Shown here: positions 50,443 to 58,373 of the stretch, one piece after another
Position numbering within the stretch: the stretch's first letter is position 1
Layout of the letters: each line of letters begins with the position of its first letter
Assembly: GCA_023898805.1 (NCBI GenBank)
Contig: CP060260.1
Coordinates: 849,656-913,655, forward strand
Source of the DNA: Rhodospirillales bacterium
Lineage (GTDB): Bacteria > Pseudomonadota > Alphaproteobacteria > Micavibrionales > UBA1664
Direction of reading: 5' to 3'
DNA: 64,000 bases
Position numbers and translations under genes: made by a program
The notes under the pieces: generated by a model
Seen by the model: only the letters and a program-made list of their open reading frames with translations
The model's database searches: none
Told to the model about the DNA's origin: nothing

Positions 50443-53317
50443 TTACGTCATACCACCAGAAGAAGGCGCGTTTACATCGCCATGGAGTCTTCTAATTTCG
50501 TTTTCCTTCTCCTTGATATCCCTACGCCTTGCATTAGTGGCCCTGAAATTCTTTTCCGTACCCTCAAGCGCGCTATGCCCCTGAGTCATGACCGCATAAC
50601 CGGCCAAGGCCATGCCCTGCATATTGCCGATATCGACCGGCCGGTCGCCTGTGAAGGACGACCCGCCGCCCAGCCAGCGCAGCATCTTGTCCGGAATCGC
50701 ATCGATCAGCTTAAAACAGGAATTGGCCAACATATAGACCAGATAAACGAACAACACGGTATAGGTAATAATCCCAAACCCGCTGACATTTCTGATATCC
50801 AATCCGCAAGGCGCATTTCCGGTCCCAGGAAGCGTACATGTAGCATCCGGGTTATAGGCGAATATCGCATATTTGAAGGTCGCGGCTAGAAAATTCACCC
50901 CGGCATTGAACACCAAAGTCCCCACGATCAACCCCATGATGATCAAAAGCGGACGCAACAAAACACCAAACAGCGTCAACCAGTTGGCAAAGGCCGTCTG
51001 GCCCGGCAGCCCTCGCCGTCGATCCGTAAATGCGAAAGCGCGAACAGGGGCATCGACACAACGGCCTCTGCCACTTCGATCACCCAGTTGACGGCCGAGA
51101 AAAAGAAATACATGAACGGCATCATCGGCAGCAGGTAAAACAGGACGATGCCAACCGCTAATCCAACCGTAATGATAAACCACAGCACAGGCGCAACTGC
51201 ATCCAATATTGCACCGATAAAGTTGAGTGCTTTGACAAGCTTACCCGCCCTGGAATCGCACCGAAAAATCTGTCTATGAAATTACTGCCTGCTTTGGCCG
51301 CTATATAATATTTAATCATGGATCCGGCATGCGAAAGAATGCTGCCACCCGCATCAATCAAACGGCTCATGGGGTCGTTTCCGGATGTCGTCGCGCTTGC
51401 CGCGGACTTGTTATCGACAAGTTCCAGAAAACCATCGCCAAACTGCCAGCGCGCCAACCAGAGAATAGGATCAGTAATACTTGCGCCTCTCGAACTGAAG
51501 TCCTGATTATAGGCTGGCGCCGCGCCCAAGGCGTTCGTCGGCTGTGTGGTAATATAGCTCGGCACCTTCGAAATCACGACCTCGGCATTGGCAAGGGCGG
51601 TCCGCGCAGCAGCATCTTGATCCGTATTGGTCGGCCCCCCACACCCGGTAGTTGCAAGGAATCGTCCCAATGCGATACCAGCACCGATGGTTTTGATTTG
51701 CCATCCGGCCCAGTAACGGGAGCGGGAACCGCATTGCTGACCGCATCAAGAACCGCCTGGGTCATACGCGCGGTCTGAATGTAGTAAATTCCCGCCGTTC
51801 CCCAACCGCGTGTCTTGGCGTCGTTCTGCATCGACGTGACCTGGGTCGTCGCCGACATCATGGCGGTCCGTATATTCGCAGGCACGCTGTTCATACTCGT
51901 TTGTGCCGCATTGATGGCGTTAGCGACCTGCTGTGCAAGAGCAGAAGCCTGAACATTGCTTGCGCGGAATAATCCGTACCCGATGGGGCCCACGGCACGG
52001 TTTTTCAGAAATTTTGGTGGACGGATCTTTAAATGCATCGGCCATCTGCTTCATCGCGGTAAGATAGGTTACCTGCGCCTGTTGCACGGTATTAGCCGCA
52101 TTAGTCATGTCCGTATTTGTTGCATCGCTGCTGCCTGTATCACCCTTGATCGACATTTCGATCGAACCGCAAGTGCTGTTGGCTGGCGACGGGCCTTTGC
52201 CAGAGGGCAGCGGAAGATCGACAGCCGACCAGACATAGGTGATTTTCGCGGCACCGGCATCGCGTCCAAACTTGATATCGGCATCTGTAAACGTCGCTAG
52301 CTGCGAGGTTTTTCCATTATCGACCAGAATGGTCACCACGTCCGTACCGCTTGCCGGGAAAACATCGGTGGGGCTGTTCCAGTGCCCAGCGCGGTTATAC
52401 GCGGCACGACAGGTTTCAAACATGAATATGCCGGTGCCAAGTGTCGACGCGGTCGGTGCCCCGACATTGCCCGCGACCGGCGTCGGCGCGTTGAACGCTT
52501 CCGTATATTTAACCCAAGCATTGGTCGCAAGGCCCGATCCGAATTTCGCGATATACATGGTCATGTATTGCCCGGCGTTGAGCCCGTCGCCCAACGGCAC
52601 CAGAAGCCCAAGCGCCAGCACCAGCCGGATCGGCGCCCACAACCCGTTGAAGCGTTTGCCGAAGGGCTGCCCGGTCTGCGCCGATTCCCCGACCACCGTG
52701 ATCACGTAATACAGGACCACGATCACCGCGATGATCATCATCGCCGTGCTGTAAAACCCTAAAATGGCATGGAACCCGGGCTGCGTGATTGTTGCCACGC
52801 CCGAACCAAAAATATCGCTGACGCCGAACACGCTGCGCAGGAATTCAAAAATAATATCGGTATTGGGATTGGGCGTGCTAAAAAACGTGCCGCTGGGCGT
52901 ACCGGCCGCGTGCGCGGCAGAGCCGAACGCGGCATACAGCACGATCAAAATGGTCTGCAGCACGATCATCGCCATCGCCACCAGCACCGCGCCGAAGATC
53001 AGGATCTGGTCAATATTCTCGCGCTTCACCACCAGCCCGTTCGCAGCGGTGGCGATCACATCGCGCACGCCGAACCGGCCGATATTGGCGGGGTTGAGCA
53101 TCGGATGCCCGGCAGGCAACAGCCGCGCCGAACGATAGACGAGCGCGAGCACATAGGCGAAATGCCCGAATTTTTGACCCAGCGCGCGAATGCGCGGAAA
53201 AATTTCCGGCATATGCGTATACCGGAACAAGGCACCCTTATCGACATGAGGCATATGCGCGGTATTTTTATCCGCGTGATTATCCGACTTGAACAACCCG
53301 AAAAGGGCCATGCACAC
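50443..53317 (-). pseudogene. dotA: DotA/TraY-family type IVB secretion membrane protein, fragmented by multiple frameshifts
   Basis: Five consecutive minus-strand ORFs in different frames tile one protein of about 950 aa: 51920-53317, 51574-52038, 51158-51670, 50976-51206 and 50443-51183. It carries a DotA/TraY-like core (GESAQTGQPFGKRFNGLWAPIRLVLALGLLVPL) and polytopic C-terminal segments. Confidence 0.7.
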
Positions 53318-53495
53318 ACCCCGTCTTGTCAGCGCACAGCGGCATTGGTGCCGCAGGCGGGACTTCCCCGCCTATTATTATTTAAAATTTTACCTAATTT
53401 TAGGTTAACGCGCCACAGGAATCTGTACCGTAAAACGACATAAAATCGTTGCGAATCTGGTACTTGCGACCATTATAAACAAGTTGGAACGGCTT

Positions 53496-57475: not shown

Positions 57476-57623
57476 GACACGCACACCGCCACCATAATAA
57501 GAGTCGCCCGATTTTTCGTGGGCTTTTTCTAAATTATCACCAGAAGACAACGCGGTTTTGGCGCGGCTGTCAAGAATTCCGGAAAACATCTCTCCCGCGC
57601 CCCTCGCGTTTTGAGTCACGCTT

Positions 57624-58373
57624 TTATGACCCGTAAGCCAACCATTGTTCGATTCCGACGCCGTTCGGGCTTTCCAGCCGCGGGACGCGCACGATGACAA
57701 GGCGGATGGTCATGCTGACATTGCGCTGCTGTGACCCGAACTGATAGGTGATCATCATCGGCATTTCCACCTGCCATTGATAAACGCCGTTCATGACCCC
57801 CTCGGCCAGAATGGTCGGCGCGGCGCGCGGCGCGGCGGATACGACCTGACGATTGGTTTCCACGGCCTCGATGATACCCGAATCTTGCAGCGCCTTGACG
57901 AAGGAGTTCCAGCCCTGCCGGGTGAAATGGCGCGATGCTTCCTGTAGCCTGCGGCGATAATCGTGGAAACCGAAAGTCATGGTTTCGGTCGCGGCTTGGC
58001 TGGCCCATGACAAAAGCGCGGGACGCGAGAGGTTCGGCTCTGAAAGCGCCACCATCGGCACCACGCGCCCATCCTCGGTTGTCGCGAAATAACGGTTTTC
58101 TGGCTGATAGGCGTATACGATGACGATCATCGCGATAATCAAGCCGATAACCGCGATCGCTTCAATCAGCGCGACCCGCAACATCGTGCGATAGCCGTCG
58201 CGGTAGAATTCATTGCGCACCACGATCCGGCCAAGCCCGGTCTGCGCGTTGCGCGCCTCGGCATCTGCCACACCTTTTCCCGCACCGACCTTGGCCGCGC
58301 GAGCCTGCGCCGCGCTGGGGCGCGGGGCGGATTTGGGATCGTTCGGCGTATTGTTGGGCGGGGTGGGCGGCAT
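57624..58373 (-). CDS. dotI: DotI/IcmL (TraM)-like inner-membrane component
   Basis: NEFYRDGYRTMLRVALIEAIAVIGLIIAMIV is the typical IcmL N-terminal motif plus TM. A periplasmic domain follows. Confidence 0.8.
   Translation of the reverse strand: MPPTPPNNTPNDPKSAPRPSAAQARAAKVGAGKGVADAEARNAQTGLGRIVVRNEFYRDGYRTMLRVALIEAIAVIGLIIAMIVIVYAYQPENRYFATTEDGRVVPMVALSEPNLSRPALLSWASQAATETMTFGFHDYRRRLQEASRHFTRQGWNSFVKALQDSGIIEAVETNRQVVSAAPRAAPTILAEGVMNGVYQWQVEMPMMITYQFGSQQRNVSMTIRLVIVRVPRLESPNGVGIEQWLAYGS

Follow-up and report, generated by a model that had tools for sequence, protein, structure and literature searches.

The described systems closest to the one reported here are Legionella's type IVB secretion system (T4BSS), known as Dot/Icm, the Tra system of the IncI1 plasmids R64 and ColIb-P9 (mating-pair formation (MPF) type I), and the I-type type IV secretion systems (T4SSs) of alphaproteobacterial megaplasmids. 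The subject of this report is a 64,000-nucleotide stretch of contig CP060260.1 (GenBank assembly GCA_023898805.1, positions 849,656 to 913,655 of the forward strand; at its full length, the window), in which the listing of open reading frames (ORFs) and family searches place a run of five consecutive minus-strand genes, dotI, dotH, dotG, a probable dotF and dotA, at 50443-58373. This run is probably an operon-like module of a chromosomally fixed, Dot/Icm-like T4BSS that is scattered as small modules among housekeeping genes. According to database names and the literature, the organism is an alphaproteobacterium with a small genome (~1.9 Mb), related to the epibiotic predator Micavibrio and placed by GTDB in the Micavibrionales. 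The system is an essentially unstudied member of the known I-type/T4BSS family, and is closer to Dot/Icm than to IncI1: its DotI (in the window) and the DotN of a relative (contig L012) reach the Dot/Icm equivalog cutoffs of NCBIfam, whereas the TraO, TraP and TraQ models stay far below theirs. The five genes, with the matches by which they were placed, are:

57624-58373, minus strand: dotI/icmL, inner-membrane component and first gene of the putative operon (Pfam PF11393 and NCBIfam IcmL_DotI_only)
56288-57475, minus strand: dotH/icmK, core-complex protein (PF12293 and PDB 6x62)
54942-56291, minus strand: dotG/icmE, short form of 449 amino acids (aa) with a VirB10/TrbI-like C-terminus (PDB 7muc/9ngw)
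53496-54839, minus strand: probable dotF/icmG (traP-like), 447 aa (position, architecture and weak ortholog matches)
50443-53311, minus strand: dotA, four ORFs in the window (TIGR04346 DotA_TraY; the intact ortholog matches PDB 9ngy)

The initial annotation had read all five products as Dot homologues, and for four of them this was borne out by the profile hidden Markov model searches that it proposed, as DotI, DotH, DotG and DotA reach the IcmL, DotH, TrbI and DotA_TraY models. DotI matches PF11393 at 9.3e-63 and passes IcmL_DotI_only with 206.5 bits (cutoff 175), and the identical protein carries the name IcmL/DotI in three NCBI genomes. DotH matches PF12293 (6.3e-78; 261.6 bits, cutoff 25) and the Legionella IcmK/DotH in PDB 6x62 (2.7e-49). 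The start of dotH was set at MKRLLPVLL..., which resembles a signal peptide; the longest ORF reaches 57700, and other assemblies annotate the protein at 395 or 433 aa. As the initial annotation stated, the dotG start overlaps the dotH stop (ATGA) and DotG is short. It scores 40.8 bits with Pfam TrbI (cutoff 35), matches the DotG C-terminus in PDB 7muc/9ngw (residues 853-1045) at 3e-20, and reaches 154.8 bits with the NCBIfam DotG model, over the C-terminal 260 positions only, and 91.2 bits with the TraO model. It falls below the 750-bit Legionella equivalog cutoff because the long N-terminal region is absent. The dotA fragments score 107.4, 36.1 and 55.5 bits with TIGR04346, of which the first alone reaches the cutoff of 100, and an intact DotA ortholog matches the DotA in PDB 9ngy at 1.3e-21.

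The fifth homologue did not stand in the same way, as the window DotF has no significant family match of its own (IcmG_DotF, E=0.22; TraP, E=0.17, 11.6 of 135 bits). Five of its seven orthologs match NCBIfam IcmG_DotF weakly (best 2.4e-10, 40.6 bits, cutoff 200), and in all relatives its counterpart sits after dotG and before the next dot gene. An acidic N-terminus, a single membrane helix and a long linker, rich in Ala, Pro and Gln and with a coiled coil, make up the protein together with a C-terminal beta domain of ~55 residues, which was modelled from the single sequence by AlphaFold with a predicted local distance difference test score (pLDDT) of ~90. A fold search with this model placed PulC/GspC-HR and PilP nearest, with scores that were not significant, and the DotF profile returned only coiled-coil noise from the PDB sequences. 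From its position, its architecture and the weak ortholog matches, the product of 53496-54839 is a probable DotF.

The resemblance to Legionella Dot/Icm extends across the loci described below, in which homologs of DotI, DotH, DotG (C-terminal domain), DotA, DotN, DotO, DotM and DotL were found together with a DotE/DotP paralog pair; the system is likewise chromosomal, occupies several loci and shows no relaxase in the loci examined. Unlike in Legionella, a gammaproteobacterial parasite of eukaryotes, the host is an alphaproteobacterial relative of a bacterial predator. DotG lacks the ~740-residue N-terminal part, dotA lies directly after dotF, the modules are smaller, more scattered and each set among core genes, and dotA is hypervariable and tandem-duplicated in relatives. 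DotB, DotC, DotD and the IcmS/W adaptors were not seen in the loci examined. Not all parts of the system are equivalogs of the Legionella type, as its DotG is short and the scores of DotA, DotF and DotN are low.

The module lies among core genes, as the initial annotation had stated, with ykuD (L,D-transpeptidase), icd, a yfgM-like gene, bamB and der on one side and mlaC, mlaA, lptG, lptF and pepA on the other. The order der-bamB-...-icd-ykuD-dotI-H-G-F-A, followed by no or one variable gene and then mlaC-mlaA-lptG-lptF, is identical in four loci of relatives (L008, L009, L014 and L015), in which identity to the window species is 80-89% for Icd, 59-76% for DotH, 49-67% for DotG and 37-53% for DotA. 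Nei-Gojobori ratios of non-synonymous to synonymous substitution (dN/dS) were 0.15-0.30 for dotI, dotH and dotG and 0.14-0.34 for dotF, compared with 0.04-0.40 for the flanking housekeeping genes; dotA gave 0.27 in the one between-genus comparison with a computable dS, and with dS saturated all of these figures are rough. No integrase, tRNA or attachment (att)-like repeat was found at the cluster borders, and the sole tRNA is 41 kb away. A conserved position, flank-like dN/dS and borders without integrase, tRNA or att sequence exclude a recently integrated or decaying element, and by this comparison of sequences the module and its chromosomal position are shown to be inherited vertically under purifying selection.

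One of two readings offered by the initial annotation was that the cluster is the decaying remnant of an integrated IncI-like conjugative element. The break of dotA into four ORFs, a gene order that resembles traM-N-O-P...traY and a GC content (overall and at third codon positions, GC3) of dotA and its neighbour below that of the flanks all speak for it. Against it, the position is unchanged in relatives with only 59-76% DotH identity, the synteny holds at 37-60% Dot identity, dN/dS (0.15-0.33) resembles that of the housekeeping flanks and the borders lack an integrase, tRNA or att-like repeat. The IncI1 equivalog models were also missed, TraO reaching 91.2 of 225 bits, TraP 11.6 of 135 and TraQ 26.8-43.1 of 80, and the mobile-element context of an IncI1-type system is lacking, as the flanks are core genes without att-like repeats and are the same in divergent relatives. 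Together with the nature of the dotA breaks, this leaves a decaying remnant extremely improbable.

The frameshifts in the window dotA are one-base homopolymer deletions at ~52005, 51963, 51640, 51250 and 51012. Compared with the closest assemblies, runs are shortened in the window from A6 to A5, G7 to G6, G4 to G3 and GG to G. Between 50000 and 51999 there are 0 substitutions and 8 one-base indels relative to three other assemblies, and about ten one-base homopolymer indels are packed into the 2.3 kb from 49681 to 52005. They extend into the neighbouring gene at 48058-50374, the 3' end of which is frameshifted. In six other assemblies of the same species, dotA reads as a single ORF of 904-957 aa wherever this region is included, and the exact DotG of the window is found on several independent assemblies, of which those fetched with their flanks show identical gene order. 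The breaks look like assembly errors and dotA is almost certainly intact in the organism, contrary to the broken gene implied by the initial annotation; real decay would not give indels with no substitutions beside them, a pattern that is the signature of homopolymer error in long reads. The indel cluster probably consists of long-read errors left unpolished in a strain-variable region, as this stretch diverges strongly between co-occurring strains and short-read polishing is expected to fail there. In strain-variable genes, homopolymer errors of long-read metagenome-assembled genomes (MAGs) can thus mimic pseudogenisation exactly.

Family searches with ~40 more ORFs found no further T4BSS gene in the window, in agreement with the initial annotation, and the cluster looks isolated within 64 kb. 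Further genes lie elsewhere on the same chromosome. On JACKIY010000001.1 (GCA_020638235.1, same species, 920 kb) a dotO module at 551.6-574.6 kb and the dotIHGFA module at 787.7-809.0 kb are ~233 kb apart on opposite strands. The second module reads groESL-...-usg-...-SIMPL, then genes for a TraQ/DotE-like protein (441 aa), a small DotP-like protein (154 aa), a DotN-like protein (234 aa), the VirB4-type ATPase DotO (996 aa) and a protein of 151 aa, then aldo/keto reductase-...-yggS-mscL. Its DotN scores 74 bits (cutoff 100) and its TraQ-like protein 33 bits. The DotO (P0159, 996 aa; named IcmB by NCBI; MCB1538569, MCB9986538, USO06926) shares three genomes with the exact DotG and DotI of the window (MCB1538625/27, MCB9986753/51, USO08479/81), and the MAG RFNZ01 carries both the second module and the five-gene locus. 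The traQ-traX equivalents that the initial annotation had described as missing are therefore, for at least four of them, present ~233 kb away in the same species.

More distant relatives, with DotH 57-59% identical, have one long cluster of dotI-H-G-F, a TraQ/DotE-like gene, 1-3 small paralogs, dotN, a dotO of ~1000 aa and a small gene. The DotN of such a cluster (L012) reaches 105 bits, over the equivalog cutoff. The DotE-like protein and the small DotP-like one are paralogs of each other, as are DotE and DotP of Legionella, and the ancestral order dotI-H-G-F-E-P-N-O matches that of Legionella region II. In L019 the genes that come after this order, a small gene and an aldo-keto reductase, are those that also follow dotO in the window species, and it is because of these shared neighbours that an ancestral dotIHGFEPNO cluster is held to have been split in the clade of the window. 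All sub-clades examined keep, directly after dotO, a small protein of 151-186 aa (L021, 13002-13457; L016, 13000-13464; L019, 13003-13464; L012, 20165-20725) that belongs to no family and probably represents a component of this T4BSS lineage not described before. A T4BSS can thus be broken up into modules, each of three to five genes and set among core genes, and because of this layout, detection based on a window or on co-localisation calls the system 'partial'.

The coupling proteins were sought with a DotL/TrbC alignment that was built from plasmid sequences and used to scan metagenomes. Contig L028 carries dotO-dotM-x-dotL, with a DotO 67% identical to that of the window species, and a search with its DotL returned thousands of 'IcmO' proteins in alphaproteobacterial MAGs. 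On L099, an 890-kb scaffold, the order is ...dotG-F-E-P-N-O-dotM-x-dotL, with 193 bits for DotM_IcmP, and two further contigs have dotM-x-dotL as a module of its own beside argS, one of them (L029) also beside gyrB. DotL and DotM were found in the relatives L028, L099, L029 and L069 and in the cultured predator M. aeruginosavorus ARL-13, with DotM at 146-193 bits (cutoff 230) in the relatives and TrbC as the best-scoring model of the DotL homologs. Both proteins therefore belong to this family of systems, in which they are seen outside the window species only. Directly downstream of dotL in L069 (9200-10099, minus strand) is a gene for a Fic/DOC-domain protein; Fic enzymes are known T4SS effectors.

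These modules bear on the other reading of the initial annotation, that an outer-membrane core module had been kept for another function. In a wider form, the core genes and the DotO module would be kept without a complete effector-translocating T4BSS, with a role in adhesion, in membrane contact or in the exchange of lipids, or as a reduced machine that lacks a coupling protein. DotL, DotM, DotB, DotC and DotD were not found in the window species (for DotL, among the best 120 matches only), which is what a reduced machine would give, and the Legionella outer-membrane core with DotG alone mediates lipid mixing with target membranes without ATPases (10.64898/2026.01.14.699567). A core module kept without the rest is contradicted by the TraQ/DotE-like and DotP-like genes, dotN and dotO on the same contig, and the retention of two cytoplasmic components, DotO and DotN, in the same species argues against the reduced machine also. 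To our knowledge, DotN is known only within the DotL/M coupling complex of Legionella, and this restriction counts in the same direction. Related lineages and cultured Micavibrio do have DotM and DotL, and a DotL search that spanned the best 120 matches is no true negative. A system reduced in this way is unlikely. A complete co-located T4BSS was not found either: the rest of the system is not co-located with the five genes, and is only partly demonstrated.

The system shares with IncI1 a DotG of TraO size, a TraQ-like protein and a TrbC-like type IV coupling protein (T4CP), and in distant relatives PilV/Shufflon_N genes lie beside the cluster. Unlike IncI1, it has no plasmid or integrative conjugative element context, the loci seen contain neither a relaxase nor a nic region, and the traQ-traU equivalents are relocated, not deleted. 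In the plasmid collection, the DotO homologs nearest to it (40-45% identity) belong to the I-type T4SSs of alphaproteobacterial megaplasmids (Methylorubrum extorquens AM1, Bosea, Rhizobium, Martelella and Roseomonas), and the DotL/TrbC-type coupling proteins of the Bosea megaplasmid and of the Micavibrionales-type L028 are 42% identical. In a tblastn comparison of the T4SS genes of one megaplasmid cluster, that of Bosea, with every Micavibrionales locus, DotO was the sole detectable match. The megaplasmid clusters differ in being plasmid-borne and not in conserved chromosomal neighbourhoods, and related T4CPs occur on MPF_I conjugative plasmids.

It could be argued from these plasmid homologs that the machine is chromosomal and working but transfers DNA, by conjugation or DNA release, instead of injecting protein effectors. 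The megaplasmid DotO matches favour this, as does the T4CP family shared with plasmids typed MPF_I and conjugative (an Acetobacter plasmid, for example) and the preference of the DotL homologs for the TrbC model. The PilV-like proteins with Shufflon_N domains just upstream of dotI in more distant relatives (L010, 1-4228; L012, 1-5518) also recall IncI, in a position similar to that of the thin-pilus genes of plasmid R64; they could represent a variable adhesin associated with the secretion system. On the other side, neither the window nor any of the ~20 related loci examined contains a relaxase or oriT-type gene, and the modules are singly embedded among housekeeping genes at conserved positions. 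DotI and the L012 DotN reach Dot/Icm equivalog cutoffs, with DotM at 146-193 bits below its cutoff of 230. MacSyFinder classed the systems of seven marine Micavibrionales as pT4SSi, the relaxase-free type, in a passing remark (PMC9418006). A DNA-transfer machine is accordingly judged improbable, and a protein-translocating T4BSS of the Dot/Icm kind is preferred.

By analogy with Legionella, DotH, DotG and DotF would build the envelope-spanning core of such a T4BSS, with DotI in the inner membrane and DotA forming a central gated channel that would open on contact with a target membrane. DotO and a DotL/M/N coupling complex encoded elsewhere would drive proteins into the contacted cell. The target is most likely a prey bacterium, which is the least certain step of this scheme; it is favoured because the only cultured members of the lineage are predators and because of transcription in the attack phase.

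The link to these predators came from a search with the DotO of the long cluster, in which the matches, from Micavibrio sp., M. aeruginosavorus, Pseudobdellovibrionaceae and Rhodospirillales MAGs, bear the name IcmB; NCBI places Micavibrio within the Pseudobdellovibrionaceae. A circular 'novel Micavibrionales (2 Mbp)' genome had been recovered from activated sludge with long reads by Singleton et al. (PMC8012365). Literature searches pairing Micavibrio with Icm, T4BSS or DotO found nothing beyond the remark in PMC9418006 that links the order to a T4BSS. The M. aeruginosavorus ARL-13 genome paper (2011) proposes hemolysins and type I/II secretion and reports no evidence of type III or IV systems (PMC3189940).

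The expression table of that paper shows otherwise. In the rows of it covered here (PMC3189940, supplement 4), GMV_380 is gyrB and GMV_381 argS, followed by GMV_382 (768 nucleotides, nt), GMV_383 'icmO' (2583 nt), GMV_384 (582 nt) and GMV_385 (1215 nt), which is the arrangement of contig L029. The table also gives GMV_191 as pepA, GMV_192/193 of lptF/G size, GMV_194 as vacJ and GMV_195 as ttg2, and then three 'putative membrane proteins' of 2694, 2763 and 2742 nt. These three, GMV_196-198, encode ~900 aa each and have the position and size of dotA in the window, beside mlaC, which suggests that they are DotA paralogs. In the same entries der-bamB-...-icd (GMV_347-352) lies elsewhere with no dot-size genes after it, and the position of dotA beside mlaC therefore appears ancestral, the clade of the window having brought dotIHGF beside dotA. 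The dotI-dotO genes of ARL-13 would be expected near flgK (GMV_2433). Expression indices for attack and attachment were 11.9 and 3.9 for GMV_196, 4.8 and 1.7 for GMV_197, 3.6 and 2.8 for GMV_198, and 4.3 and 3.5 for GMV_383 (icmO). All four are thus transcribed in the attack phase, in which most of the housekeeping genes listed there are ~0.

A more specific possibility, put forward tentatively and held to be less likely than not to prove correct, is that the T4BSS is the contact-dependent apparatus of Micavibrio-like epibiotic predators against Gram-negative prey, with the variable, duplicated DotA and its neighbour tuning which prey envelopes can be breached. If true, this type IVB system would be the first to have bacteria as its target. 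The way in which Micavibrio, staying outside its prey, kills and drains it is not understood, and a chromosomally fixed Dot/Icm-like machine kept in every relative examined is a concrete candidate that can be tested by knockout. The X-T4SS of Xanthomonadales and Lysobacter (type IVA) offers a possible functional analogy, as a T4SS aimed at bacteria on contact, the bacterial target being hypothesised here. It differs in belonging to the VirB/D4-type class, and homology between the two goes no further than the ATPase and VirB10 folds that they share.

Several points weigh against a Dot/Icm-like T4BSS directed at prey. DotB, DotC, DotD, DotL, DotM and IcmT were not located in the species of the window, and DotB, DotC and DotD are in none of the loci fetched. 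The best 120 of the thousands of DotL matches (57-100% identity) all come from other sub-clades, with none on a contig of the window clade. DotG, DotA, DotN and DotF are below the NCBIfam equivalog cutoffs for Legionella Dot/Icm, and the evidence for DotF is weak. The presumed DotA paralogs of ARL-13 were recognised in the table by size, annotation and position, not by sequence. The target could be bacterial or eukaryotic, and the system may act on a eukaryotic host or transfer DNA instead.

The variability of dotA was examined in two strains of the window species, L002 and L001. Their der, bamB, icd, ykuD, mlaC, mlaA, dotI and dotH have 100% nucleotide identity, dotG has 6 synonymous differences, and dotF has 8 synonymous and 1 non-synonymous. 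DotA, however, is only 76% identical in amino acids (dS 0.62, dN 0.19) and the protein of the convergent neighbour 86%, a difference that, read from these alignments, marks allelic replacement of dotA and its neighbour alone. In L009, two tandem dotA copies at 10812-16524 are 70% identical. In Legionella, the central gated channel is made of DotA and IcmX and extends when it touches the target membrane, with release of DotA (bioRxiv 10.64898/2026.01.14.699567). By analogy, the diversification of dotA would fit an interface with the target. The neighbour encodes two copies of a ~90-aa N-terminal domain with acidic linkers, is absent or replaced in other genera, and is a candidate substrate or partner of the system. 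It is listed here with two further features around the module:

48058-50374, plus strand: species-specific gene, ~771-797 aa, convergent with dotA; no Pfam or other family match; co-varies with dotA between strains
50389-50426, no strand assigned: bidirectional terminator-like hairpin between dotA and the convergent neighbour gene, with a 13-bp stem flanked by A and T runs
58409-58438, minus strand: promoter-like site upstream of dotI, a consensus match only (9/12)

Promoter-like sites such as the last are not enriched over shuffled sequence. A scan of GTDB genomes with peptide patterns gave only two loci, as the patterns were swamped by chance matches.

Elsewhere in the window, a large subtilisin-like protease with a P-domain and RTX calcium-binding repeats (38248-40881, plus strand) and a Sel1-repeat protein with a peptidoglycan-binding domain (9250-11157, plus strand) resemble the secreted arsenal described for Micavibrio. 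Positions 1-9130 form a low-GC (~51%) block that ends at a tRNA-Gln (8959-9033, minus strand) and carries a recombinase-domain protein (7717-8796), the nrdD/nrdG genes of an anaerobic ribonucleotide reductase (4797-7591), a Crp/Fnr regulator, moeA and a porin of the alginate-export type. This block looks like a genomic island integrated at the tRNA; it was considered as a source of further T4SS genes and rejected as an unrelated island. Four ORFs of 240-795 aa have no NCBIfam match (17697-20015 and 25758-28145, minus strand; 33356-35113 and 41068-41790, plus strand), and the last of these, which lies in a local low-GC patch (GC3 0.45), also has no Pfam match.

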